From Lates japonicus (Eukaryota), in assembly GCA_033238685.1 (NCBI GenBank), contig BRZM01000010.1:3760405-3824404 (forward strand): 64,000 bases of DNA. The letters run 5' to 3'. Below the pieces are notes generated by a model. That model did not search any database, had not been told where the DNA came from, and was given only the letters and a program-made list of their open reading frames with translations. This document shows, piece by piece, positions 1,879-41,915 of the stretch. Position numbers and translations under genes: made by a program. Numbering within the stretch: position 1 is the first letter of the stretch; each line of letters opens with the position of its first letter.

Positions 1879-3743
1879 CCCCCTCTCAACCTGAAATCCC
1901 CTGTCCCACATTAGATAACACTATCAGACTGTGTGGGAGATTGTTTTGAATCTGTTTTCCCTCAAGTCTGTTCTGTGGCCTAATCGTTTGGTATGTTTAA
2001 AGACATGAACAACTAGAGGAGTGTTTAAAAGTAGAATTTAGATTATTGTTTAATAATTGTTTTAATGTTTTAATGCCAGCCTCATCAAAACCTTTGTCAG
2101 TATACTCACCCTGAGCCTTCCTGGGTGAGGCAGTTTTAAAAGTGGCACCACAGCTGCAACATTTCACCAATCAAGACCTCTGTTTATTGTCCACATGGCA
2201 TTCAGCAATAACACAAGAGCAGTTGTTGTGACCGGCGATCAACACTCACACAGTGAACTATCCGTAAACTTAAGTGTCCCACTCAACCTGAACCCACCGT
2301 AAGTGTTTAATAACATATTTGTTGACAGCTTTAACTCTTCCTGAGGCCAGTATGGAGAGATATATAGAGACATAGTTGCAGTTTCCCTTATGTAATTAAG
2401 TACAGTAAAGTTTGTACTTCGGAAATGGATATTTGTTTTGTAATATAATATATGCAATTTGCAGTGCCTTTACTTTGACTTCGGTCCACACCAACGGTCT
2501 ACAACAGAGGGCCTAAAAAGTGGCCTAAAATAGCACAAATAGTACAAAATAGTGGCCTGTGTAATTATGTATTACACCAATAGAGGGCATTTATCCATAT
2601 CAAGGATATTCACTTGCTGCTTTTGATACTTTGAGTAAACTTTGGTTCCTGAGGGAGGGATTGATGGAAAAATTACAGATTAAAGATCTGTAATTCTAAA
2701 TGCACAAAGATGATATCAAGTTTCATGTACTACAATAAGATTTTGATGGTGGGTTTAGTGTATGGCACACTGTTGGATAACAATAAATTAATAACTTTCC
2801 TTTCAGGTAAATTGAATATTATCATATTATATTATTATATTGAATGCTTGAATACTTCCTCCACCCCTGCACTTATCTTTACCAAAGCTTTTTTTTCTAA
2901 CATCTTTTTTTTTCAAGAAAAAAAGTTCTGTTTTTCAAGAATAAAAGGCCTGTAGATGTCATTTTCATAGGGTTCTGTTATAGTGTAAAATAAAGTACAC
3001 TAGAACATCATGACAGTTTGTTTAAATAAAGTTTTTAAATAGTAAATGTGAATGATGAATAAGATGGAATAGAGCAGAATAGAATAAATCTTATTATTCT
3101 TACACACAAACACAGCCAGACATTATAGACCGCCTATAGATTGTAAATGTGGAATGAGATGTGAGCAGTTTCAGCAAATTAAAGCAATCTTGTAAGAATG
3201 TGCATGTAATGGCACATTTCTCTCTCGGTCCGTCCCCCTCCTCCTCTTAACATTCAGGAAACGCGTCGATTTACAACTCTCGGTAAATAAAGGTGGTTGT
3301 CAGGGGTTACTGCTGCGGTTGCTGAGCAACACATACAAATAATGCAAGAGAGCAGTGTTTCAGACTGTAGCGTCGATAAATATTTAGCTTATCCGACCCG
3401 TGTCGATAGTAACGCTGATGGAGAAGCGTTAAAATAAACAATGACAACATTTTCATTACTAATACTGACATAATATTATAATCGTAATACATCTCTCTTT
3501 TCATCAGCAGCCAGTCAGAAACTTCAAGATTTACATGATTTTTTCAGTCATTATGGTCTCATGAATTTGGAAAACAAATTTTTATTTTATTTTAATTTTT
3601 TAAATAACGTATAGCCTATTTCCAGGTAAACATTTCCATGAAAAAAGATAGAAATAGACGTGCAGATAACCCTATATCTCAATTAATAGGGTGTCATGCA
3701 AAAATCATCCTCACTGGAAAAATATCTTCGCATACAAGAGACA

Positions 3744-3812
3744 TATATACATCAAAACATGAATTATATACATCAAAACATGAATTATATACATCAAAAC
3801 ATGAATTTAACC
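3744..3812. repeat. Tandem repeat, ~23-bp unit (atacatcaaaacatgaattatat) x3
   Basis: Three near-identical consecutive units, read directly from the sequence. Confidence 0.85.
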
Positions 3813-5325: not shown

Positions 5326-5689
5326 AGAACACCCTCCCCTCCTGCTTGACTGTACAGAGGACCATGATGGTGTCACATCCTGTTTGCTGTCCTGTTGCAA
5401 GCCTGATGCGTGAACCTATTTCCAGCACCTCTTCCATTTGGGGAAGTGCCCCCCCGTTTGTGTGATCCTGTCGTGTTTTCCATGCTGTGCTCTGAAAAGG
5501 CACTTTTTCCACACTGAGCTCGTTTCTTTTTTTTTCCTCCTTTCCTCTGCCATTTTCCTCTCCCATTTCTTTCCTGACTTGATTCCATAAGCAGCAAAGT
5601 AATGGCGGCAGGAGTGGCAGGATTGATTTTTCCATTACGACCCTCTGTATACGTTTTATTTTGAGTGGTTTACACGAAGCATAATTGGT

Positions 5690-8204: not shown

Positions 8205-9089
8205 ATGGCTATTGTCCTCCACTCCAGCCCTCTCCTATGGACACGGTTGGCAGCCCTGGTCTTCTCCTGTGTGGCGTTCTCCGTGGCGGTGCATGGCGCC
8301 AGGGTAAACCACGGCACCGGAGACTGGTGCATCTTCTGCTGGGCCTTCAGCTTTGCTGGGACTCTGCTCGTCATCCTGGTGGAGCTGTTTGGCCTTCAGA
8401 CCAGAGCCCCTGTCTCCTGGAAAAACTTCCCCATCACATTCGCCTGCTACGCCGCCCTGCTCTGCCTGTCCGCCTCCATCATCTTCCCCCTCTACTTCCT
8501 CAAGGGATCCTGGGGCCAGAATGAGGTTTACAACTACCGCATCGTATCAACTGTCTTCTCCTGTCTAGCCACCATCGCTTACATGAGCGAGGTGAGCATC
8601 AGCAAGGCGCGTCCCGGCGAGGTGGCTGGCTACATGGCCACAGCCCCTGGCCTGCTGAAAGTCTGCGAGACCTTTGTGGCCTGCATCATCTTTGTGTTCG
8701 TCAGCGACCCTGTGGTGTACGACCGTCACGATGCACTCAAGTATTGCATGTCTGTCTACTGCATCTGCTTCATCCTGTCGGCGGCCATCATCGTGCTCTG
8801 CATAGGCGAGTGCACCGGCTGCCTCCCCTTCCCGTTTGCCCGCTTCCTGTCCGCCTACGCCCTGCTGGCTGTGGTCCTCTATCTGTCAGCGACCATCATC
8901 TGGCCCATCTTCAACTTCGACCCCAAGCACGGTGGAACAAAACAAAGGCCGTACAACTGCACCAGCGCTCAGGGGCTGTGTGTGTGGGATAAGCTTGTGG
9001 CAGTGGCTGTGCTCACTGGTGTCAACTTCATCCTCTACCTGGCCGACCTGATCTACTCCACCCGCCTAGTGTTTGTCAGTGCTTGAGGG
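8205..9089 (+). CDS. myadm-like: Myeloid-associated differentiation marker-like protein (MYADM family, multi-MARVEL domain), single coding exon, 293 aa
   Basis: 293-aa ORF with ATG at 8205 and TGA at 9087-9089. It aligns along its full length to human MYADM, for example [21 protein letters not shown] and [27 protein letters not shown] strong acceptor (tcttcttgcag) at ~8079 upstream suggests a spliced 5'UTR. Confidence 0.85.
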
Positions 9090-11110: not shown

Positions 11111-14100
11111 CTAGTTACTTTTAAGATGTTACACAATGGATAATATAACAAACTTTTAAAATACAACACATTAGTAAAAATTAAACCAGTGGTGTACAAA
11201 GGTAGTGTGTAGTCGGGACACATGTCTGGGAGTTGCTACCACCAAATAGTTTTAGATTTTTTCTCTCCAAACTTCTCACATGGTTTTATTTCAATAAATG
11301 TTCAAATGATCTCACCATCAAAGATTAGAGAAAAAGTCCAAAAACTGAAAACAGATGTGTGAATCAGAGGTTTCCTCTCCGATTAATCAGCTCAAGACCC
11401 CTCACACCAAACTGGTTTATAACACTGTGGTTAAAATAGTTCAAACCAGCTCCACCTGCAGCAGCTACAACAGTAACATACTGCTATGTATTAATCAGCA
11501 TTAGTCATCTAATTATGTAAATAATAAATCAGACAGAGGGACCAAACCAGAAATTTTACTCTGACTGCACATTTTACTGCTAATACCTAAGTTTTATGTA
11601 GGTGGGATTTTTCGTGCAGGACTTGTAATGGAGTATTTTTGCTGTATTGGCACTCTTAGTCCATCACTTTAACATGGACTGAAATACCTCAACAACTATT
11701 GGACGGATTTTCATTTTGTCAAACACTTTGGGTTATGACCAAATATAGGCATTGACACTCCCATCACAAATGTTTGCATGCTAACATGCTAAACTAAGAG
11801 TGATCATGGTAAAGATAACCTGCTGAACATTAGTATGTTGGCACTGCCATTGTGATGTTAGCAAACTGACAATACCTTAGGTGACTTGCACTTCTACAAT
11901 AAAAAGCTAAAATGAATATAAAACATAATCAATGATTTAAAAAGACATGCACAGGCTCTAACACAGGCTAACTGTAAACCACTTTCCCATGAGATTTAAC
12001 AACAGTGATTTGAAAACTGTCTTTAATTGGTCTGTATATAAATTAATTCACATAAAAAAGAGCGAGCTGGCTGTTTGAACTAAAAGTAAACTGACTATAA
12101 TCAGCATCTGCTCAATACACACTATTAACAGTACACTCCACTGTTTACTTTATCTCTCACCACATTTTTTACTTTCCCCACCTCCGCCCTTCCCTGACAG
12201 ATTCAGACAACTCACAGGGGCCTCAGTGTGCCAGGTCTGTGACAGTCAGAATCAGAGTCCACTGTGGTTCAGATCAACTTTAAAGGTTTGACTGCTGGTG
12301 GCTACTTCAGGGGGCGGAGAGGAACACCATCAACATTTCACTCACCTATAAATCTATGGCCAGGAAAAGAGGCGTCAGTGGCGCCCAGTTCTGACACAAT
12401 GACATGTCATGGAGTTTAGTTTGTTTAAGGAAGGGTCGTACCCTCAGGCATGGGAACCTGGCTACTACAATAGCAAGTCCAGCTGCTGGCAAATTAAGGA
12501 GTTAGTGTCCCTGGAACACAAGGCAGGAACTTCATGACTCAACTTCATAACTATCCATGTGCACAGAGCGATGGAGGAAGTATTCATGTCTTTTACTTTA
12601 ATAAAAACAATAATACCACACTGTAAAATTAGTTATAAACTTTTAAGAATACCGTAATCAGGAAAATGTAAGGTATAGCTATTTGTAACTGTTTAGTATA
12701 GGACTTCAACTAATGGATCTAATCATGGATTAACCTGATGATTGCTTTTCAATTAACTTTAAAAAATCACAATTACCTAGAGCCCAAAGTGACATCTTCA
12801 TGATGCGTGATTTCTCCAACCGAAAGGCCAAACCTCACAATTAAATTGAAATTATCGAAATAACTAAAAAAGAAAGCAGCAAATCCTCAGCATCCAGCAG
12901 CTAGAACTATGACCAATAATTTCAGCTCTACTTGATTTAACTGTTTAGTAGTTTAATTTATGCAAGCTTTTCATACTTTATGTAATTTAAAAAATCTTAA
13001 TCTTATTTCTCTACAGTGGGCTATTTGTGCTCAGTTAGTCCCAGAGGAAAGCAGTCTTTGGGATTTTGATGAGGTTGAGAATTAAATTTAATTAAATTTC
13101 TCATTATCTTCAAATTCAGTTTTATATTTTCTGAAAATGTCTGTTGGAAATCCATGTTTTTGTTGAATGTAGCTTATAGATACAAGGCGTTTTAAAGACT
13201 TAATATAAACATGTGGGGGTTGCTGCTCAGCTGGTCAAGGTGACTGGGGTGCAGAGAGCTCAGCCTCAAGACATTTATTATGAAAGGGTCATCAGTAAGG
13301 CCCAAATGACTCTTAACTGTCCAGATCACGTCACCTCCTTTCTTCAGGCTGATGCTACAGGATGGTGAAGATAAAGACCCTGTGTTTTATCACTGTAGGC
13401 ACCGAAAGACTGTCACACCTGCACTTTATCTCACCAAAAATCTGATAGCAAAATGGAGGACAGTATGACTCTGAGTATAACATAATATCCTGTTTCCCAT
13501 TTTTCTTAATTCTGATCATGTGCCATGAAATGCAGATGTGCAAAATGTGATTTAAATGTCTTTTGTGGTTCATAACTTATCGTAAATGTCATCCAAAACA
13601 TGTGATATAACACCATGTATCTTTTATTTTTTATTATAAACATTATTCACATACTGCAGACCCCTGGAGAGAAAATGCTAAAGATTTGAGACTGAATCCC
13701 AGCTTTTCCCTTAAATCTCTTGTTTTTCTCTTCTCCTTCATAACATTTACTGTCTTTTATATCTCCTTGGCCACTTAAAAGTACATTTTGGCAACATTCA
13801 ATCTTGGCTGACATGAGTCTGCACTGTGCATGTTGTTTTAAACCATCTCCCATATGCTTTGCTACTGTTATATACAGCACAAAGTGCTGTGGGGAGTGGT
13901 CTTCCTTCTCTCCTCAAGTAACTAAATTAATTCTTGGCCTTCCCACTCTGACCCATAAAAAGAACAAAGAGTTTAAGTCATCAGCACTACAATAGCGTGA
14001 TACAATCTCAAATAAAAGAGGCCACAGAAAGAACTCTGCCTCAAACACAGCATCGTGTTTCCACTCTTAAAGCGGATGTGTTGTTCTTGACGCAGCCAAG

Positions 14101-17100
14101 AGTAAAGTGTGGAACAACAGGCACTTGAATGACAATACAAAACACACAGCTAATTACAATAGACACACAGATGTGCCGAGTGCTCGAAAAGGCCAAACAT
14201 TCCTCCAGTGCCGAGGCTCGTGTATCCTCACTCTCCCACAGAAACAGCTTGTAGTTTTTCTGTTTGGCCCGACTTTGATTTCTAACCTCGTCCCTTTCCA
14301 AGCCATGAGTCTCAATGGCAAACAGCTGTGCAAGCTGTGTGTAAGTAACAAATGAAGTAATTTTGTTGGGTTATTTCCTAATATTCTCATTTTATTTCAA
14401 CACATTTGTGTCCTTTTGGCCCTTTGACCCTTGACTGTATGGTCATATGCTGCCTCCAGTACAGAATCTCCCAATTTCTACATTTTTTAAAGAGGAACTC
14501 CACCATTTCTACAGATAAAGGTTAGTTTATTCATCATGGGAAGATCTGCTGAGTTTGCAAAGAAACAAGCTGTGGTTTTAATGGTGTAGGGGGCTGGAGG
14601 GGGTTGTCACTACTCCTGTCCAAGAAAAAGCCCCACACATGATACCATATAAAACCACAACTTGCACAACTTGGTCTTTTTACAATATGATTTTTGTACA
14701 GAAGATATAATATGGTATATAGTGAGCTTCAGGGGTGGATTTTGTTACCGTTTGACAGAGCCAGGTTAGTCATCTCCCCCTTTTTTCAATCTGTTGTGAC
14801 ACAATCAGGCAGACATGAATATAAAAATGACTGTTAGATTGTCTCTTTGGCGGCTGTGGCCAAATAATAATTTGCATAGGAAAAGGTTTAGCCTAGTTGT
14901 AATGAAATGAAATCAGTTATCAGTCATTGGATGTCAAGCCCAGCCTTCTGAACTTAGTACCCCGTCACTGTTTTTTTTAGGTGGGAACTGCCCAGATGGT
15001 ATAAAAAGCAACCCATATTATCAACAACAGTTTTCACTCAGTCAAATAAAAAGAATGCCAATCCACCCAATGTGGCAACACTGACAACACAAGAATTACA
15101 TTCACCTCCACTGTGTTATGGTACTGACCAAAGTCTAAAAGATAAGTTTCTTAAAACGGGCAAACCTGCAATTTGTGTGAACTGACCCTTTAATAACTGA
15201 TGTTAAACTGATATACTTTTTTTTATTAGTGTAAATACCATTGGTATTCTTGATGATAATATAATTAGTGTTATATACTGTTTATTTGAATTTCTATTAT
15301 TAGTATGAGCTCGCATATCAGAGTCAGTATTAGAGTTAACACCAGTATTATTGGGGCGAATAAGAAGCAGTAACACAGCAGCATTATCACCATTGTTGTG
15401 GTAAAACAATCTGTACACTGTATTAAGTCACATTAACAGCAGGCAACAGCCCGACAGCTATGTCCTGCTTCCACATACCTCAGTTATCCTATAGTTAGCT
15501 CGTCTGTTGGGACTCTGGCTTTCCAGTGACTGCAGCTCGGTTTAGATGTAATGATCTTTAACCTCCTTATCTAATGAAGGCCTTTCCATTAGGGGTCCGT
15601 TTGGCAGCTGTTGTATGAACCTGCATGTGTCAGTCAGGCCTGGCTCAATGAATTCACTGAGTGATGTTTGAGATTATATCTCCCCCTGGTGAAACTCTGA
15701 GTGATTTCATGTAACAAGAGGTGTGGATAGAGGAGTAGGCCTACCATATGTCACCAAATACCAATACAACAAATTACAGTATAAGAAACAAGTGGGAATC
15801 TTCAGGCAGGATAAAGTCTATTTTTATCACTGTATCGAATTCTCCAATCCAGGAATGAAACCATTTGAAGCAGCACCATTTCCTGGCGCAGCAAATCTCT
15901 TCATTGAATTTTAGTAGGTTGTTTTGCAGTTTAAAGTCAGGGTGACCTTGCTTGTCTATTCATAGCCTGAGAAACTATGCTATACAGATAATAAAAAAGA
16001 CTAAGCAAAGTTCCCAAAATAACAAGAAGAGAGTCAGCCAAGGGGTCAATCAACTATCAGTTTGTTCCAGGTATTAGTAAGTAGTATATGAGAGAATATC
16101 ATGGTTCTAAAGTACACTTCAGTAAATGGCCAAAATTATGTAGACAAGTATATAAGACTTCATTGTTTGGGGTAGGGCCTTTAGTTTCAATTAGCAGAAA
16201 ACTTTACAGGGTACAATGATACTTTAGAAAACAGCGTGCCTCCAACTTTAAAGCAACAATGTTGGGAACATCCCTTTCTGTTTGATAATACCCCTGTGCA
16301 CAAATCCAGGTCCTTACAGCCCTGAACAGAACCCAATGCAACAACTTTGGGGTGAACTGAGATGAGATGTTTTCTAACCAGATCCATCACCTACCATCAG
16401 TGGCCGCCAACGCTCTTGTCGAAAAATCCTTGATCCCGGTTCCAAAATCTCGTGGAAAGCTTTCCCAGAGGAGTAGAGGCTGGTAGAGCAGTACATCAAT
16501 GCCCGTGGTTTTGGAAAGAGATGTTCAACAATCACACGTGGACGTAACGCTCCGAGGCCTGTAGTACGAAGCAGGATTTACGGTTAGCGAGATAACTTCA
16601 GGTTTAACTCTGGGTTTTCTTAGCGGGGTAAGTCGCCATGGTAACTAATGCTAAACGGCTAACCTGTTCTAGGACAGGTAAACTTCAGCGGATTGGATCA
16701 AAACCTGTCAACAGCCAAACTACTGACCAATCAGACCACTGGAAAACTAGAGTCATTGTTCCTACAGGATCTCGACATGGACAAAAAGGTTTGCTATAAA
16801 GTGAATCGATTTGCTGTTCCAGTCATATATCCACAACAGAGCGTCTAACAAACGGAGGGAGAGTTTATCACACTAAATGATTATACACAGCTTCATTTTA
16901 ACCGAATATGCACTGTTGAATATTTCCCACGATTTTAAAAGAACATTTCAGTCAGATTGACCTCAACATCAGTTTTCTCCTCTTCCCTCTGCTTTGGCAC
17001 CAGAAACACTCTGCATTACATATTCAGAATAACTCAGAATACATCACCATCAGAAAAAAGAGCAAAAACGCTTATCCAGTAAGAAACAATAAAGTTTAAA

Positions 17101-29200: not shown

Positions 29201-30689
29201 AGACATCATCAAAAAGGAATGAGAGTTGAATTTGTTTTCTTCAGTTTGCCCGGGGTCATGAGGGATCTCAGTCCATTAGCGATTAATTCACCGGTTCAGA
29301 GTATGTCACAGTTCACGCATCATGTCAACACGGTGTTGTGGTCAGACCTAAAACAGCCAATAAACAAATTTTATTCTTTTGGGAAAGTTTCATCTGACAC
29401 ATGTTTAATATAATTTAATACTTCATCCTGTGTCTCGAGTTGAACCCCTCACAAGGATGAGCATAATTAGATCTTCCTGATTTGGAGATCAAGACCCCAC
29501 AAGGATCGCTAACATGAAAACTGAAGAGTTGTGAGATAATTAGCAGGTTAGAAACCAGCTGTCGTTGCTTGTTTTCTTGTGACCTTCGCTAATTTCAATT
29601 TCTTTGTCTTTTTTAAATTTTCCCTTTTTTTCTTGGAAATAATACCCACCTTAGAAACCAATTGAGTTTTAACCGCAACACATCTCGACTACATGAAATC
29701 CTTTATTTGGTCACTGTTGGTTTCAAAGTGTTTGCTACAAATTACATTCATTAAGACAAGGGCATCACAATAGCTGGGTTTCTTGTAGCCAACAAGTCAA
29801 TCTCTGGCCCGCCATAGCGTTACCTTTAAATTATTCCAGTGATGCAGCAAGACATACACATTCTTTTAAAAGTAACTCTATAAAATTTTGGTTAGAGCAG
29901 TAAAACAGCTGCAAATAGTTATTACAGGATCGGAGTTCACAAGCAGGATACACTCTGCAGTTGTACAGTCATGTACAGAAAACAAGCTTATCAACGCTGA
30001 GGCAACAAGCTCAAAATTCATCAAAGGGCTGATAAATAAAAAAAGAATTACTGAGCTAGCTTTCCTGTGTAGACGAAATGAAGTGAGATCGTGGTGAAAC
30101 AGGTGTGTCTAGGCATGAGATGGGGATGAAAGAGGCACCATTCTTCCTATTACAAGACAGCAGGTCGTCAAAATGATTCCTAATAGTATTTTAAATGAAA
30201 TAGTTGTACAAAGTTGTTTAAACACAGGGAAATGTAGCACTGGTATCCATCAGTGCTCTGTATTGGCAGATTGTGACAAGGTATCATGAAAGAAAATGTG
30301 GGATTCCTAACTTTGACCTCCTCAACACCTACCAGTAGAAAATTAAATCACTGTTTAGTTTAACTGGTTACAACTGGTAGACACATGTTAGGACCAGGGG
30401 TTGGTAAGTCATTACTTTGTTTTATGTGTCAAGGTACAAAACGGTATCCCACTGGTTTGCATGTTACATCAGATGGGGACATAAATCTGAATATCAGGAG
30501 TGACATCAAAGTGTCAGGAGCGACCAACTCCTGTGAAGGTTTACACTCTGAAAAGTACAAATTAATCACCTAGAGTGAAGAATTAATCTCTTGTTTCTCT
30601 TGTAGTTCACTTTCATGCCTTGGGTGTGGTAATATAACTGTATGCCAGTGTGGGCGGGAAACAAATGAGAGAGTGGATGTGAGGATATG

Positions 30690-30696
<7 letters not shown>

Positions 30697-30729
<33 letters not shown>
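30697..30729. repeat. (GT)16 microsatellite
   Basis: gtgtgtgtgtgtgtgtgtgtgtgtgtgtgtgtg. Confidence 0.9.
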
Positions 30730-30731
<2 letters not shown>

Positions 30732-30879
30732 AGTGAAAAATGGGGGAGATGGAGGTTGAGTGAAAGAGGGAGGGAGTGGTGTATGTGGTGCGCGTTCAGT
30801 ACACAGAGGTTGAGGTTCCTTCCCAGATGGGCTGTTAACTCCAATTAATGCTATTGTAGCTGATTAGAAACACATTGAG

Positions 30880-31160
30880 TCTGGGGCTGCACGCACACAT
30901 GCACAAACACACAAATGTACGCACGCAAATGCACTAATCCGGAATACAGAATATGCACACACACTCAGATGCATACCACACACAAAACAAACACACACTA
31001 AAAATATACTCGTGCTTCACATGCTTACAGAAACAGGCACGCACACATCACATGCGAGTTCAAACACACACAACACTTCACCACATACACACAGACGTGC
31101 AGAGATGCAGGTCCTCACTGGCAGCACATGCAATACACAAACACACACACATGGGTTACA
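30880..31160. repeat. CA/ACAC-rich low-complexity tract (degenerate (CA)n) bordering the nfatc4 CpG island
   Basis: gcacgcacacatgcacaaacacacaaatgtacgcacgcaaatgcac...cacacacaacacttcaccacatacacacag. Confidence 0.7.
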
Positions 31161-31166
31161 GAGGTT

Positions 31167-31520
31167 CTATGCATTTGAAGCCCGTCTGTCACACAGTCTA
31201 TATCTACCGTGCCTCTTCACCTGCCTTTCACATTCAACCATATCCGCAAATGACTCTAACCCAGGTTGCCGCCGCCGCCGCCGGAGTCCAGCAGCAGGCG
31301 CCTTCACTTTCTCCCTGGGACCGGCTTCGCCACTGGCGCAAAATGTGAGTGCCCCGCTCTGCCTTCGGCGGCGGGTCCTCTCAAACACCAACTTATGAAC
31401 TCGAACTCGCCCTCCTCCCAGCCTGGGAGGAGCCCGGCGTGCGGCCCCTCATCGCCTCCGGCAAGTATAGATACAGTGATACACCCATCTCCCTGCATCG
31501 GGCGGCGATGGCGACTTTTA
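31167..31520 (-). CDS. nfatc4: Candidate nfatc4 5' coding exon within a CpG island (encodes ...LLPGWEEGEFEF then, after a 2-nt frame break, KLVFERT...); boundaries unresolved
   Basis: This is the only CpG island upstream of nfatc4 exon 2. Minus-strand translation contains EEGEFEF followed, out of frame by 2 nt, by KLVFE, which matches the conserved NFAT N-terminal motif DEELEFKLVFGEE. The ATG and donor are not confidently assigned. Confidence 0.25.
31250..31520. promoter_or_regulatory. CpG island (gccgccgccgccgg..., very high CpG density), probable nfatc4 promoter/first exon
   Basis: Observed dense CpG and GC content, unlike the surrounding AT-rich DNA. It is flanked by a CA-rich tract (30880-31160). 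Confidence 0.55.
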
Positions 31521-32389
31521 ACTGTTCCTTGGTGCCTGAAAAAAACTTTCCTGGAGATATTCCCAAAATCAAATTTTCCCATGTGCGTACCATAATATGC
31601 AAATATCTCGTTTCTTGAGGGTTTCGTGTCACTTCAGCAACTTTCCACGCCGTTTCCACTGATGAGGGCTGTTTGCTCGGATCTTTAGCAACTTTTTTTC
31701 AGACTTGATGCCTTATGTCCAAATTAAATCTTCACTGGATATTCACAGTCTTTTCCGAAACATACTCCCGAGATAGTCGGTTTTCATTCTAGCTCCATCG
31801 CTATCCTGTGTTTCTCCCTCTTCTCCCTGTTCAAGACAGAGAGAAGGAAAAGTTTATCAAATATTTTTGTCCTTTTACCCTTAATTGCCTTTGCGGGTTT
31901 CCCAGCTCCAGTTGGTTACCCATTCCCCATAGGATCTTATGCCTGTCAGTCATGAACTTCTGCCCAACCTCCAGCCTCCCTCCTCCCTCCCCACTCACTG
32001 GAGGTTTCTTTAGTCAAACTCACTTAACATTACTTAATACCCAATACACTGCAGATTTGGCTTTTCTCTGCTGATTCCATCTCATTTTGCATCATCCCAA
32101 CATACTTCTGACATGCTTCTGACTGAATCAGGTTTATTCCACATCATCCTCTTTCAGCATCAGTAAGGCAGAGTGATACATTAAGCCCAAAACAATATTA
32201 TGATTATTATTCAACTGGCGAGCGGACTGATGGCAAGCCACTGTCTTGCAACCTGCCATTGTAGGCCGGCTGCACGCCACCAGGGTTGTGATGTTAACTG
32301 TCAGTTACTGTACATGCGGCCTATTTCCCGTGGCGAAGGAACACGACAGTCCCCCTCACTCCCTTCTCTTAGAAGCTGTCACCTCCTCC

Positions 32390-32700
32390 CTTTCTTCTTT
32401 CTTTTTTCCTTTTGCACTTCACTCCTTCCTCCTCTCTCTTCTCTCCCCACCAACCTCCTTGTCCCTCCTTCTCTCTTGAGAGTCTCCTCCCTCCTTCTTC
32501 CTCTCCACCACAGATCTGTTTCTCATTATCTCCAGAATTGCTCTCTGTCTGAGTCAGGAGACTTAAAAACTTAAATAAACACTCTCTCCCTCTCTCTCTC
32601 TCTGGCCCTCTCCGCCTCAGCCCAGCTCCTTATTCCTCCTCCTCTTCCCCCTCCTCCTCCTCCTCTCTGTCTCTCCCCCTCTGTCCTCCTTCCTCGCCCT
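32390..32700. repeat. Long polypyrimidine (CT-rich) low-complexity tract on the plus strand
   Basis: ttcttctttcttttttccttttgcacttcactccttcctcctctctcttctctcccc...ctctctctctctctggccctctccgcctc...cctcctcctcctcctctctgtctctccccctctgtcctccttcctcgccctcctc. Confidence 0.8.
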
Positions 32701-35700
32701 CCTCTGGTTCTCACAATCATCAGGCGCATGTTATACTGGAGAGTAACTGGGGGCTTGTTTCACTCTCCCTGTCATCCTCTTGGGGTTGTGTGGGCAGGCC
32801 TTGGATCCTGGACTGCTCTCAAGATGTTACAGTCTGGTTGGGGAGAGGAATAAGCACTACCAGCAGGGCAGACTCAGGACTTTTTGAGGCCGTATTCAAG
32901 ACTTGACAAACCCTTCAACACCATCATCATGTAATTATTAAATACCAGTGGTTTAAAAAAAAGAACTGAGTTTGATTGGAGGCCCTGTGATAGCTGAAGG
33001 TTCCTATACGCAGCCATTTAGTTTGCCATTGGCTGTGACTATTAGCCTAGAAGCTTACAGCCAAGACTACGTATGTCCAAACTGAAAGTATCAGTGTGCT
33101 TCAAACAAATCATCAAACTTCTCCAACACCTTTCTAATGACAGAACTACTGCATCTGACAATATATAGCAACTCACTGAAACCAACAACCTGACACTGGG
33201 TGTACAGAGGTGGGAAAATGTGCAGGGTTTGAACTTCACAAAACTTGCATTTGGTTGCATTTGAAAGGATGCATGTGGTGTGACATCAGGAAGGCTGGTC
33301 TGAGCAGTAGTTACGTATTTTTAAGGCTTCTCAGACACTATAGCGTTTGCCATGAGACAGAATTTTACAACTCTGGAAAGTTATCATGAAATTTTTCCTC
33401 CATCTTCACAATTGCAAGGAAAAGTGTACAGCTGTACAGCTGGCATGCATCATACAGCAATATGCTCTTGCATGTTGCTGGATTACATCACACTGTGTTG
33501 TGGCCCGCGTTGAACCAGGTTCAAGTCTTTGTGCCTCAGCTCTCTCTAACCTGGGGATGAATCTACAGTCTCACTGAAATGAAATAAGGAGGTTGTGTTT
33601 TTTGATTTAGAGCTAATGTTGATCTGAAAACCTCCCATAAGCAATCTAGATGAGAAAAACACAACTAATGCGTGAAAATAACTTTTCAGTCTCCAATTAG
33701 TAATTTTGAAGAGAAAAAATCAGTGAAAGCCAAATAGAAAAAAAGGAAATGATGTAATCTTTTCCTTATTTAATTGTTAGCAAACAAAAATGTATATTGC
33801 AACCTGGTGACTTTCTGAGTATAGACAGTTAGAGGTGACAGAAGGTTGGATTGCCAGTATCACAGCCCTTAGCTTTGTATGAGCAGACATACACCATTGT
33901 TCTGGAAAAGTCCAGTTTCCTCGTCTACACTTTAACATGGAGTTTGGAGTTTAGGTGTAAATAATGTTGGCTTAGTTGGGATTGAAGGCCAAAATAAAGA
34001 GAAAGAGATGCAGATGCGTTTGACTTGAAGTCGCCATCAACTGTACAGTAATCCTACTGTAACTTGGTCTGCCAAAGTGCAAAATGAATTGTTAGAGTTT
34101 TGTAAGTGCCAGTGAATCTTTATGTAAAAAGTTGAAGTTGAACTTAAATCTGAGAAACAAAGTACATGCTTGTACTGTATGCACGTTTTCAGCAGTTCAG
34201 ATACAGAGCAATTCTAGAAATGGAAAGTTTTTGGGGGGGTTGTGAAACTGTAGCGCTGAATGGCTAGTAAATTGTTTAAAGGACTGCTGCAATGTGATGG
34301 ATGAGTGCAACACACAGGAGGAACTGCTGAGTGTCAAGTTTATGGGAGCAGGAGAAGAGGAAGATATTCTTGTGGTAGTGTTGCCCTCGTGTGGTGAAAG
34401 ATAGAATAGCTGTAACTTTCCACAAATGTCATTTCTACTTTTATAGCCTGAGGACACAGATTACTGTTATCAGTGGAAAACTTTTTGTGACTTTATTCCT
34501 GACAGATTTACGTTCTAAAACAGAGGGAGAGACACCTAAATGATTTATTATATAGCCCATGGGTTCAACTAAAGTACATATTGTGATGTTATGATGAATA
34601 TATACTTGAATTACTCTATCTTCATATAATTACAATATATTCAGATATTGTATATTCAGGCAAGCTGGTACAGGAAAGTATTGATTTGAGCATTTTTTGC
34701 TCAATAATTGTTTAATTTCTATTATAACACGCACATTAAAAAACATATATTCACTATAAAAGGTTCTTGACTTCTTGACTTGATTTGAAAATGAATGCAA
34801 CTTGTGGTACTGTTTTCAAAATACTAAAATAAATGAGATGAATATATGACCTATAGAATTCACACTATCCAGAGATATTTCAAAACATAAAATGTTTAAA
34901 GTGTTACTTCCTAATTCTATATATACATATTTACCTGCTTATATTATAGAATGTGAGTCCAAGCCATTTTCTCTGATATCAAGTATTTGCAACTAACTGA
35001 CACAAATAGTCTATCAGGAACTACAGCTAAAACCGATGGGAATGTCATTAGTTTTGCAGATATTTAGTCATAAAACAAAGAACCGGACAATTATAATATT
35101 ATATATATTTGACCTAATGATTGCAGTAGGTGAAAAGTTAGAGGATCTACAAAGTTTTTACAGTTTATCCTCAGGGGAACATGAATGTCAGCACCAAATG
35201 TCATGGCAATCCATCCAGTACATCACACTGTGAACCTCCTAGTGGTGCTGAAGAAAAAGTCAGAGGATCATAAAAGTGACTAGGGTTCATCCCCTGGGCA
35301 CAACGAATGCGTGCACCAAATTTCATGACAACCTTTACAATACTTGTCTAGATATTTCAGGAAAAGCAGACCAACAACATGGTCATCCCACAAATCCCAC
35401 AAGTCTTATCAGAGCACTAAAATATACAGAGACGGTATCTATAGAACCTTAAAGACAAATGGGTGACAGCTGTTAGACACAGGGACATTTACCTGACCGG
35501 TTTCAGGTCAAAGTTGAACAGTTTGTAACATACATTATACAGTATATGATGAGTAAACAGACGCCACCCTGGACTAAGGAAAGGGAGCCACATCCTTCCC
35601 TTTCTCTAAGAAACAATGTGGCAATGAGTGAGATATGTGTGTACAAAGAAAAGTCTTACAGAAGATAAATAAAACATTACAATGAAAGATATTCTTGAAA

Positions 35701-36905: not shown

Positions 36906-36922
36906 GTGTGTGTGTGTGTGTG
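36906..36922. repeat. (TG)n microsatellite
   Basis: gtgtgtgtgtgtgtgtg. Confidence 0.85.
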
Positions 36923-39477
36923 TGCTCTCTGTAAGTGTAGGTGCCCCCACTATGCCCACAAGACAGCGAGGGAGCTTGCGCAAACATTTGATTCACCTGT
37001 CTGTTCAGTCACATTACGTAACAATTACTGAATCACACAGAGAGAAAAGTGCCTCCGGGCACATTTATGTTGATACGTGACATGTTTTCAAGAAGAATGC
37101 ACATTTGTTTACAAAAAAGAACATTATGTAAAGAGTGTTATAGCACAGATATTTGAGATACATTCCACAGATGTTCATATATCTGGGGAAGAAAATAGTA
37201 GAATCTTTAAGACAGTGAGAATTTTAAGGAAGTACACACCTCTGTGCCTCCTTCTCTTAAACCACAACATGTTGCAGCATGTGAGGCAGGACATGATTCA
37301 GTTTATCATGGACTGAGGTAACAGAGACGACTCAAAAGAGAGAGAGACGCTGTAAGAGCCGGACAGAGCAGACAGCAGCAGTGGGATATTAGAATCTGAG
37401 ACACATCACAGAGAGAGACATCACAAAGGAAAAGGTCAGTCATTCTTGAATGTTGACAGGAAAACTCTCAACTTTTTGTTTTTCCAACCTCTCATTAACA
37501 TGTCTCTCTGCTGGATTTTACTAACATCTGCCTCTTTCCTGTTCTCTTTTTCCATCTTAAAATAATAATTTACTTCTCTTGACTTCATTATTTACACCAG
37601 CAAGTTTTTTTTTCTTTTTATGATTCATTATTTTAACACTTGTGGACTACAAGCTAATCGATTTTTATTACTTTACTGGCAAACACAGTTTCTGGCAGGA
37701 ACATGTGATTTACAGAGTTGTGGTGATTTTCAGACTTTTCCAAAAGTGCCTTAGGTTTTGTTTTGTTGATTTTGTACTTGAATAATTGTCAAAAAAAACT
37801 TTGCTGTACATCACAGTAAAAGTGTCTTTACTTCATTCCCATTTACCAGTTTCTCATGGAAATGTTTGTGTATTTTGTGTATATTTTCTGATCTGACAAT
37901 TCGTTCGCAGTCGTCTTGGAAAAGTCTAATGACACCTGATTTTATTGAAAAGAGTTTTCTTGTAAAAAGTTGTAATGTCAGAGCTCTCACCCAACACCCA
38001 ACAATCAGTGTGTTGCTTAGACTGAGCTTTCTGTTGCATTTCTTACTCGTGATGTAAGTCTGGCATTAATTCACTCTGTTTACTCATTCACTCTCATATA
38101 AAGCTCTTAGGGGAAAATAAACAGTTGACTTTGGTGGGACCAGAGCAGTGAAATTAGGACTTAATCACGAAATAAGGACTTAATTTTCTTGTTCTCACGT
38201 GGCTTAAATGCTGTTTTGCACAGATTATATTGTGATATGATCAGTTTCTGAACCAATGATCTTCTCTCTGTGTCACTCAAGTTTGATGTTTCTACTATGA
38301 TCGGCATATACAAGTCAGAGATAGATACAGGGATGTGTTATTCCTTAAAGGTCAACCTTCTGTGGCCTCTGCACTCTGTGGGACCAGTTTCCATGTGAAA
38401 GGACAGTGAGAAAGAATCTACAGAAGAGAGACAAATGAGGGCAGAAAAAAGAGAGTGATTCAAAGACCGTGTTGAAATACTGCTCTTGTTTGATGCAGTA
38501 CTGCTAATGTTTGGCGTGTTTTAGCATGCTGCCTCTACGTTTGAAACACAATGTTGGCTACAAGGTCTAATGTGAATATTTTAGAGGCTGCGTCAGGGTG
38601 GTTGCCATCCTCTAGGTTTGCTTGTGTGCTGCTTGTGAACAAATATTTTCTTTATCTTCAATTACTTGCGCACTTATTTTCCACAGAATATATCCATCTT
38701 TGACAAGCAGGTGTGCTCAGAAATCAACAGTCAAGCCCCCAACTTGTCAATAAGTAAAATATTAGGTGAAAGAACCAAATCATTGGTACAATATTGTGAT
38801 TGTGTATTTTCTATCACTATTTCCCTCTTTTTCTGCGATGTTTCATCACTGACAGTTAGAATTGATTTCCTTGTTCCTGTTCCATGTTCCTGTTAACTTT
38901 AAAGAAGAGAGACATAATGGCAATCCACATCACGCACACATATAGACATTTTAATCAAGGGTTGTCCAACACGTAACTGAACATTTTTGAGGAACAAAAG
39001 AGATGAGAGGACAGTTTATCAGTCTCAAACTAGCCTTTTTTTAAACCATCAGGACAGAAAACTTCAAAAGTTAGAACATCTGCTTCCTTAGTTTTAATGA
39101 TAAGGGTGGGGACTGTGGTACAGTGGAAAAAGCAAGCCTGCATCTGCCATCATACACCAGTGATGGTGAGGTGAGATATGTGACAAGTTATGCAGAAAAG
39201 GAAGGAGATATACTGTCATGCTATGAGCAGAGATTTCTATCTATCAGTCTACTTATCTCTTCCATACGGCAGTGGTATACAGCTTGCTAACAGTGACATA
39301 AAACTGGTTTCATATAGAGGCCCATTTCTTCCACTTGAGAAAAAAAGTTTGTGTTTTTTAGTTTCAGAATGACAAAATAGGAGTTAGAAAGAAATATCAC
39401 CACAACAATGATATTACTGTCTGAATAGAAGAACAGAAATAAACCTTTTAGTTCTAACTTTGTCTCTTGCCCTCAGG

Positions 39478-40081
39478 ATGAAAACTTCTGTAAGCATGAC
39501 AAACTTCAGTACTCCCCCCCCCACATTCACCTGTCAATGCCACAACCATACAACCAGAGGATAACAGTGTTGTGAGCAATGACTTCTCCACAGCCTTGGG
39601 CGCCCTCATCCTCGGCTTGGTCTTCCTCCTGGGCGTCCCTGGCAACTTCTTCATCGTCTGGAGCATCCTGGCACGCATCCGACGACGCTCAGTCACCGCC
39701 ATCCTCATCCTCAACCTGGCATTTGCCGATGGCTTCCTCATGATCCTCACCATCTTCTTCATCGTCTACCTCGCCAGGCAGACGTGGGACTTTGGCAACG
39801 CCATGTGCAAAGGCCTGTTCTACCTGTGCAACGCCAACATGTACGCATCCATCTTTCTCATCACACTGATGAGTGTGCACAGGCTGGTGGTTGTGGTGCT
39901 TCCAAGAAGAGTGAGCAGGATGGCCAACAGGAAGCTTGTGAGGAGGGTGCTCGTAGGCATGTGGGTGCTGGTGATGGTCATTGCTATCCCCTCGCTTGTT
40001 TTTCGGAACGTGAGAGAGGACAATGCTGAAATGAACACCGACAGACTGGTGTGTGCGCCCAATCACACCGAGGCTCGACAT
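39478..40081 (+). CDS. ltb4r: ltb4r coding exon 1 (leukotriene B4 receptor, TM1-TM4/ECL2); ATG 39478 is in frame 1 but the receptor body is in frame 2, because of a C9 tract at 39514-39522
   Basis: Translation from 39572 onwards, ...GVPGNFFIVWSILARIRRRSVTAILILNLAFADGF...MYASIFLITLMSVHRL..., aligns to human LTB4R [36 protein letters not shown]...SMYASVLLITAMSLDRS. A textbook acceptor (tttgtctcttgccctcag) lies immediately before ATG 39478. The exon ends at CAT|GTAAGT. The start-codon frame is inconsistent as assembled. Confidence 0.75.
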
Positions 40082-40924
40082 GTAAGTAGGCTTAAAAACT
40101 CTTTGTTTAAAAACCCCTCACAGTTTCCTGAAGCCCATCAAATCATTTGCTTTGTCCGACCAAATGCACAAAAACCCCAGAAGATAACTGAACCTCTGGA
40201 GCTCTCTGCCAGCATAGACGAAGAGTTTGATGAATTTGAACTTCTTAACTCATGATTTGAACTACAATTCAACAACAAGTCTGTGTGCTGATGATGATCA
40301 TTAGATATAATCAGAAGCTCCAGAAGAGGTAGAAAACTGACCTTACGTTGAGACTCTTTTCATAAACCTGCAGTGGTAGCCTAAAGGTTAGAGATGCAAA
40401 TTTGTCAGTCCAATCCCCAGACCAGCAGGGTAAATCTGGGGTGGGGAAAGTTACCACCACTGAAGTTGCTTTGAGCAAGGACCTTAAACCCAATCGCTTC
40501 AGTGAAACTGTCTGCTCTGTACTGGGAAGCTTCCATGTGTCAATGTGTCACGTACAAATGTGATCAGGGCGCTCCTGCAAAAGAAAGACTTCCTCTTAGT
40601 AAAACTACCATGAATAAATAAAGGTTTAAAAATAGGAAGAAGAAGAAACAAGTTGTGATCACACTGACAAATCATCACTGTTTAAGTCGATATTTAAATA
40701 GCTATTTATTTACACATCCTGAACTTAATGCAGAGCAACATTAGGCTGGGCTAGCATCCAAACCCTTCCAGATTGTCTCATTTAAAACCATCTACAACCA
40801 CTAATTTCAGCTCTACTCTTGTCTTGTCCTGCCTTGTTTTGACAGATCCATTCATACCTACTGAAGCCCACGCAATCATTACACATCTGTTTTTTTTTTT
40901 TTTTTGTTATCCTCCCACATGCAG

Positions 40925-41125
40925 GTACGTTTTCAGTATGCCTTTGAGACAGTGGTGGGATTCATTCTTCCTTATGCAATCATCATAACCAGTTACATCC
41001 TCATCCTGAGACGCCTGAGGCAAACCAAGTTCCGGCGAAATGTCCGCAGTGAGAAACTCATCCTGGCCATTGTGGTGATGTTCGGCGCTTTCTGGTTGCC
41101 GTACCACATCATCAACATGATACAG
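40925..41125 (+). CDS. ltb4r: ltb4r coding exon 2 (TM5-TM6: VRFQYAFETVVGFILPYAIIITSYILILRRLRQTKFRRNVRSEKLILAIVVMFGAFWLPYHIINMIQ)
   Basis: Aligns to human HLIFEAVTGFLLPFLAVVASYSDIGRRLQARRFRRSRRTGRLVVLIILTFAAFWLPYHVVNLAE. Bounded by acceptor cacatgcag and donor CAG|GTGTGT, phase 0 at both ends. Confidence 0.85.
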
Positions 41126-41618
41126 GTGTGTGGGGGCATGTTGATGGTATTATTTATGATCACATGGAATCTGCTCACATTTCTGCTTTTAGATCAATGA
41201 TGTGACCTTTTGAACGAACACAGTGTTTTGTTTTGTCCAAGGTTGCGGCTGAGTGGTACTCAGAAGGATCAGACACAAAACGAATGTGAGTAAGAAAAGA
41301 TTTTCTCACAAAAATCTCAAACACAAATATTTTCACTGACATTTGGTAGCTTTAATTTACCAAAGATTCACAAAACAATGCTCTGAAAGGTTGTGACATT
41401 AGGTTTTACCCAGTGGTTTTACCTAATGTCACATATGGAGGAAACTGATGGATTTCCACGCATTGGTTGAGACTGACATGCACTGTTATTGAACAATTTT
41501 TTTTTCTTATAAATACAAATGCAGACAAGATTATCCTTCTTAGATGAAATACCGAGATGTTTGAATATAACTTTAATTTCATGTTTTGCAATCCCTAAAT
41601 GTAACACGTTAGTTATAG

Positions 41619-41915
41619 CTGTGGTCTAAAATGTCTAGTCGTCTGTTTATCTGCAGATTGGACAAGATCTCTACATCCAGTCGTGCAGTGACCTCAGCTC
41701 TGGCCTTCATCAGCAGCTGTGCCAATCCTGTCCTCTACACCTTCGCTGGAAAGTCCTACATAAAGCAGAATGGCTTCGCCTTCATGGCTAAGCTCTTTGA
41801 GGGCATATCAGTGGACCAAACAGGAAACAAAAAGAGTCGGGGCATCAGTAAAGACAATGTGGGAACCAGTCTTGTTGACTCCGCAAACAGCACTGGACAA
41901 AATGGGAGATGAACA
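41619..41915 (+). CDS. ltb4r: ltb4r coding exon 3 (TM7 with NPxxY motif ANPVLY and the C-terminal tail; stop TGA 41913-41915)
   Basis: LWSKMSSRLFICRLDKISTSSRAVTSALAFISSCANPVLYTFAGKSYIKQNGFAFMAKLFEG... aligns to human ...RNVLIALAFLSSSVNPVLYACAGGGLLRSAGVGFVAKLLEG. The acceptor gttagttatag at 41618 gives exactly the 26-residue spacing seen in human between NLAE and ALAF. Confidence 0.8.

Follow-up and report, generated by a model that had tools for sequence, protein, structure and literature searches.

A single-base C-tract difference that puts the start codon of akame ltb4r2b out of frame is probably a homopolymer artefact of the assembly

Zebrafish Blt2b acts as a receptor for 12-HHT and LTB4, and the fish BLTs form a clade of their own, sharing only 29-34% identity with the receptors of mammals (Okuno et al. 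2015, PMC4349892). The window that we analysed here, a 64-kb stretch of DNA from the akame, Lates japonicus, contains a gene that resembles teleost ltb4r2b of the zebrafish Blt2b type in being a class A GPCR of the 7tm_1 family. It sits between nfatc4 and sdr39u1, two genes that also appear by name in the legend to the figure on blt synteny in zebrafish (PMC4349892). The best solved relatives of the window protein are human and guinea-pig BLT1 (LTB4R; PDB 7VKT, 7K15, 5X33), against which residues 35-344 align with all seven helices. Unlike the teleost ltb4r2b orthologues, however, the gene in the window has a start codon that is out of frame by one C.

A second described system bears on this difference. 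Homopolymer indel errors fragment genes in long-read and hybrid assemblies (Kastor, PMC12007338; ILRA, 10.1101/2021.07.30.454413). The C9 tract in the window is like errors of the Kastor/ILRA type in that a single-base error in homopolymer length would produce a false frameshift 'pseudogene', in that it is exposed by close relatives, and in that the assembly has other indel-biased errors. It is unlike them in that the sequence holding the tract otherwise looks as accurate as short-read data, and in that the case is known from assemblies alone.

Read with eight Cs rather than nine, the gene has four coding exons on the forward strand, all with canonical splice sites. Coding exon 1 runs from the N-terminus to the border of ECL2 and TM5 (39496-40081, with the donor CAT/gtaagt, and in frame only with C8), exon 2 covers TM5-TM6 (40925-41125), exon 3 is a 44-nt exon in ECL3 (41242-41285), and exon 4 holds TM7 with its NPVLY motif, the C-tail, and the stop codon TGA at 41910-41912 (41657-41912). 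A preliminary description of this DNA had placed the receptor in three exons, overlooking the 44-nt exon, which is required for an exact match to the annotated L. japonicus protein. The four-exon structure of fish ltb4r2b differs from that of human BLT1, in which the coding sequence is intronless. We also noted a candidate non-coding 5' exon of ltb4r2b at about 37260-37436 (forward strand), which ends in AAAAG/gtcagt and precedes the coding acceptor by about 2 kb, and a T16 run at 40874-40889 that forms the polypyrimidine tract of the exon-2 acceptor.

The C8-corrected protein matches Pfam 7tm_1 over residues 55-310 (E = 3.5e-48) and is 100% identical to the 361-aa protein 'leukotriene B4 receptor 1-like [Lates japonicus]', which starts MTNFSTPPPHSPVNATT; exon 1 in the C8 reading is likewise 100% identical to that annotated protein. 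The ltb4r2b protein of L. calcarifer, which starts MTNVSTPPPHLPVNATT, has 93% identity to it, and a database search returned more than 100 percomorph and teleost orthologues with 69-93% identity, mostly annotated as leukotriene B4 receptor 2b. All named database matches are LTB4 receptors. In a search of the PDB, human BLT1 (7VKT) was the best match with E = 1.5e-72, and the next family was C5aR1 with 7e-37. These similarities identify the gene as the akame orthologue of teleost ltb4r2b, encoding a BLT-type class A GPCR, and its family membership predicts a receptor for 12-HHT and/or LTB4. Most teleost annotations read ltb4r2b rather than the plain ltb4r used earlier for this gene, and the L. 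japonicus protein is labelled 'LTB4 receptor 1-like'. The neighbouring genes in the window are pex19, a MARVEL-domain ORF, nfatc4 (minus strand), sdr39u1, and an Rsm22/mettl17-like gene, and both Lates loci have an RHD gene (nfatc4-like) upstream of ltb4r2b and an Epimerase/DUF1731 gene (sdr39u1-like) downstream. No second BLT paralogue was found by tblastn within the window.

The C homopolymer at 39514-39522 (forward strand) is exactly 9 nt long when read directly from the window, and it is the sole G/C homopolymer of at least 9 nt in the 64 kb. Upstream of it lies the 3' splice acceptor of the first coding exon, a polypyrimidine tract followed by AG (39459-39476, forward strand), which is identical in L. 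calcarifer and in a contig from a second akame, from Miyazaki. The acceptor, ...tttgtctcttgccctcag/G, directly abuts an ATG at 39478-39480, as the preliminary description had stated. This is the first in-frame ATG of the exon (MKTSVS...), and it is not conserved, being ATC in L. calcarifer. The conserved initiator in an alignment of 10 orthologues is the ATG at 39496-39498 (MTNFS..., with an N-x-S sequon), which shares its frame with ATG 39478 and is the annotated start in both L. japonicus and L. calcarifer. The initiator and the sequon are conserved at this second ATG, and the PPP segment that the poly-C encodes is specific to Lates. Both annotated Lates proteins read Pro-Pro-Pro-His (STPPPH) here, which is the C8 reading, so that their annotated N-termini (MTNFSTPPPH in akame) begin at the counterpart of ATG 39496. 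The earlier proposal of ATG 39478 as the initiator is thus correct in that an in-frame ATG is present, but the conserved start is the one at 39496.

Translation from ATG 39478 gives MKTSVSMTNFSTPPPTFTCQCHNHTTRG, which is 28 codons long and is followed by TAA at 39562-39564; from ATG 39496 there are 22 codons before the same TAA. This premature stop is reached from both ATGs by way of the extra C, because the C9 tract, one base longer than the C8 of Miyazaki akame and L. calcarifer, shifts the frame of the start codons off that of the receptor. The 7TM body lies entirely in the +1 frame relative to both ATGs. The receptor frame has stops at 39479, 39491 and 39497, is open only from 39500, and has its first Met in TM2 (GFLMILT). 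When one C is deleted, a continuous 7TM protein is obtained, of 367 aa from ATG 39478 or 361 aa from ATG 39496. An uninterrupted ORF from a start codon is therefore absent with C9 and present after removal of one C, as it is in Miyazaki akame and in L. calcarifer. On all of these points, namely that ATG 39478 is out of frame with the receptor owing to C9, that the receptor frame has no ATG before TM2, and that deleting one C restores the frame, our reading agrees with the preliminary description. We do not agree that an antisense ORF fixes the tract at 9 nt. That ORF (39454-39762, minus strand, 102 aa) is no gene but a side effect of codon bias, and with C8 it is still open and indeed longer (115 versus 102 aa), so it is no constraint on the length of the C tract.

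The Miyazaki contig, BAABXA010000316.1 (GCA_041154345.1), encodes the annotated protein and has C8, and it is otherwise identical to the window around the tract; across the ltb4r2b exons, the two akame sequences are identical apart from C9 versus C8. L. calcarifer chromosome CM044655.1 also has C8, as does the independent Logan read assembly DRR004449, which is of L. calcarifer type and reads ...STPPPH.... DRR004449 was the sole match when Logan run assemblies were searched with the exon-1 ORF and its intron read-through, a search that returned no akame fragment. Since Miyazaki akame and L. calcarifer share C8, the comparison identifies C8 as the ancestral state and as present in akame, and C9, which occurs in the window alone, as a derived +1 insertion. 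The preliminary description had offered a homopolymer indel of this assembly or haplotype as one explanation and had proposed looking for C8 in the assembly of another individual; C8 and an intact annotated protein in the Miyazaki fish, together with C8 in L. calcarifer, favour that explanation.

Two akame assemblies have been published. The Miyazaki assembly (BAABXA01) was made with Supernova from Illumina linked reads only, while the Kochi assembly (BRZM01) combined Supernova linked reads, Nanopore scaffolding, gap filling from Nanopore reads with LR_Gapcloser, and Pilon (PMC11346364). The reads with which LR_Gapcloser closes gaps may be uncorrected, and the authors of the tool advise polishing afterwards. 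We infer that the window belongs to the Kochi hybrid assembly and not to the Miyazaki assembly. We compared the window with the BAABXA contig over 22.4 kb and 18.6 kb, with positions 19-29.5 kb and 52-64 kb falling outside the comparison. Outside one noisy block, the two differ by about 4e-4 SNPs per bp. The published heterozygosity of akame is 3.3-3.4e-4 (PMC11346364), and because the SNP density matches it, the window represents the same species and a different individual or assembly. The genome paper itself analysed only SNVs, and neither leukotriene receptors nor frameshifts are mentioned in it (PMC11346364).

The noisy block looks like a raw long read. Against the Miyazaki contig it extends at least from 29572 to 32590, and it terminates at a (CT)n repeat. 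Within these limits the window has 155 substitutions, 117 deletions and 66 insertions (338 differences). When the block is aligned with L. calcarifer, the Miyazaki sequence shows 94.9% identity and 19 gap openings, and the window only 84.5% and 213 gap openings; polarised substitutions are window-derived in 147 cases versus 2. Coding exon 1 of nfatc4 falls inside the block. Its 65-aa ORF has 98.5% identity in a comparison of Miyazaki akame with L. calcarifer. What remains of the exon in the window (31252-31459, minus strand) has 13 substitutions as well as 33 gap columns in 226, and no match to the ORF was found in the window by tblastn. By this pattern of differences, the block at 29572-32590 is raw-read noise and not biology, and it fits the filling of a gap from a raw, unpolished Nanopore read, a step that belongs to the pipeline published for Kochi. 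Beside the block, at 33054-35084, SNP-type differences are about 10 times denser (11 in 2 kb) than in the remaining clean sequence, and they have no consistent polarity: 4 are window-derived, 2 are Miyazaki-derived and 4 are uninformative. Either residual error adjoining the noisy block or high local diversity could explain them.

In the clean sequence alone, we polarised differences between the two akame assemblies with L. calcarifer as the outgroup. SNPs were divided almost evenly, with 10 window-derived and 9 Miyazaki-derived, a balance that would be expected of real polymorphism between two fish. The polarisable indels, in contrast, were window-derived in 8 of 8 cases (binomial p = 0.004; Fisher test against the SNPs p = 0.02), although this sample is small (n=8) and several of the indels are at hypermutable repeats. 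The eight are a 21-bp duplication that gives a third copy of a 21-bp unit at 3744, a C7 tract at 5449-5455 that is C6 in Miyazaki akame and L. calcarifer, a 453-bp deletion at 13436 of bases that are present in Miyazaki akame and L. calcarifer, a TT deletion at 15158, a CTCT indel at 32590, a T insertion at 33162, a GT -2 change at 36906, and C9 versus C8 at 39514. The absence of the 453 bp may be either a real deletion or an assembly collapse. Six G/C runs of at least 6 nt were comparable; two of them differ, and both are +1 in the window. Indels at 8:0 while SNPs are at 10:9 point to an assembly-specific indel process, from residual long-read error and/or polishing, and not to polymorphism.

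Several other observations were made along the way. The 21-bp unit, TATATACATCAAAACATGAAT, occupies about 3723-3785, with three copies in the window and two in both Miyazaki akame and L. calcarifer. None of the long ORFs listed for the window includes the C7 tract at 5449-5455. The GT microsatellite at 36906 differs in length between the two akame assemblies, and so do several long A/T runs: T21/T22 (1858), T16/T18 (40890), A12/A11 (46047), and T9A4/T8A5 (43225). The MARVEL-domain gene is a single-exon 293-aa ORF at 8205-9086 (forward strand; MARVEL domain E = 8.5e-26), and its protein has the same sequence in Miyazaki akame as in L. calcarifer, although the window shows two synonymous differences.

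We think it likely that C9 is a sequencing or assembly homopolymer artefact, with the consensus of a hybrid assembly in error by one base. The true akame ltb4r2b would then have a C8 tract encoding ...S-T-P-P-P-H... and be an intact, functional gene, and one extra C would have been written into the consensus of the window assembly. It is this extra C that makes ATG 39478 and ATG 39496 run into TAA 39562 and leaves the receptor body seemingly without a start. In the real mRNA, translation would proceed from the conserved AUG at 39496 through CCC CCC CCA CAU, and no unusual biology would be needed for ltb4r2b. It is mainly because the derived indels are one-sided in the window assembly that we infer the extra C to be one of its artefacts rather than a true allele. 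There is no second lesion in the gene: dN/dS against L. calcarifer is 0.50, with dS of 0.068, and the lineage-specific amino-acid changes in the Lates comparison (7 versus 3) are conservative. Against an artefact, the tract is about 7 kb from the noisy block, and about 4 kb around it is otherwise identical to the Miyazaki contig; and if the sequence here is Illumina-derived and was polished by Pilon at about 200x, a consensus error in a 9-mer is not very likely a priori.

The strongest competing explanation is that C9 is a real and very young +1 allele, heterozygous or homozygous in the sequenced akame, which would make it a natural, segregating loss of function of ltb4r2b. Homopolymers are indel hot spots in general, and mononucleotide G/C runs of 8-9 nt are genuine hot spots of mutation. 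The difference between C9 and C8 separates two individuals whose SNPs, in both their 10:9 polarity and their density of about 4e-4, resemble true polymorphism, and the sequence near the tract is otherwise clean. Akame are also reported to have a raised proportion of high-impact and deleterious variants owing to their very small Ne (PMC11346364), a load to which such an allele would belong. However, a real allele does not account for 8 of 8 polarisable indels being window-derived while the SNPs are balanced, nor for the second poly-C tract (5449-5455) also being +1, and the same assembly has raw-read noise in a conserved nfatc4 exon. The more than 100 intact percomorph orthologues and the dN/dS of 0.5 likewise speak against loss of the gene. 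Taken together, we consider a true allele a minority possibility, and an unlikely one.

The preliminary description had also raised the possibility of a very recent unitary pseudogene. Fixation of such a pseudogene in Lates japonicus has nothing in its favour except the frameshift itself, and at the species level it is contradicted by the Miyazaki individual, which has C8 and a complete ORF. The four exons have no further stops or frameshifts and retain canonical splice sites, and a single lesion with dN/dS of 0.50 is not what loss would predict, so that we regard a fixed pseudogene as extremely improbable.

Hardly more credible is the suggestion, also made earlier, that the C9 allele is translated from an unseen upstream coding exon that joins at the weak acceptor aaacttcag/T (39509/39510). 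The receptor frame is open from 39500 and there is an AG at 39508-39509, as such an exon would need, but the frame has three stops between the main acceptor and 39500, and the orthologues start at the ATG equivalent to 39496. Where extended isoforms exist, in Sparus, Pungitius, Perca and Nelusetta, they use the main acceptor and read the ATG-39478 frame (IKTSLSM, FKTPSSM; an xKTSxSM pattern), as in ...GSRIKTSLSMDNN from Sparus and ...QGFKTPSSMSNS from Pungitius. The Lates-specific STPPPH is translated in the ATG frame in both annotated Lates proteins, and C8 alleles need no upstream exon.

Equally remote is a recoding site, in which the ATG and receptor frames, which overlap across the tract, would be joined either by ribosomes shifting +1 on CCC CCC CCC or by C8 transcripts arising from polymerase slippage: runs of identical bases do permit tRNA re-pairing or transcript slippage in known systems, but the out-of-frame layout is not conserved, Miyazaki akame and L. 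calcarifer being in frame with C8, the tract has no positioned stop or rare codon, and folding of the downstream sequence (39523-39640) gave no unusual stimulatory RNA structure (MFE z-score -0.97).

Taken at face value, the frameshift would imply that an endangered fish has lost a conserved inflammatory lipid receptor. Our preferred reading, a one-base error in the consensus, says nothing new about the ltb4r2b gene or its mechanism, and its consequences are for annotation: the annotation of ltb4r2b in the window should read as an intact gene, any gene model or 'pseudogene' call from this assembly needs a frameshift-aware check, and the block at 29.6-32.6 kb, with nfatc4 exon 1 inside it, is to be handled as unpolished sequence. 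If C9 were true, it would be a modestly interesting allele that one akame (perhaps from the Kochi population) carries and the Miyazaki fish lacks. It would then provide a concrete example of high-impact load in an endangered fish of low diversity, and a natural knockout of a 12-HHT/LTB4 receptor.
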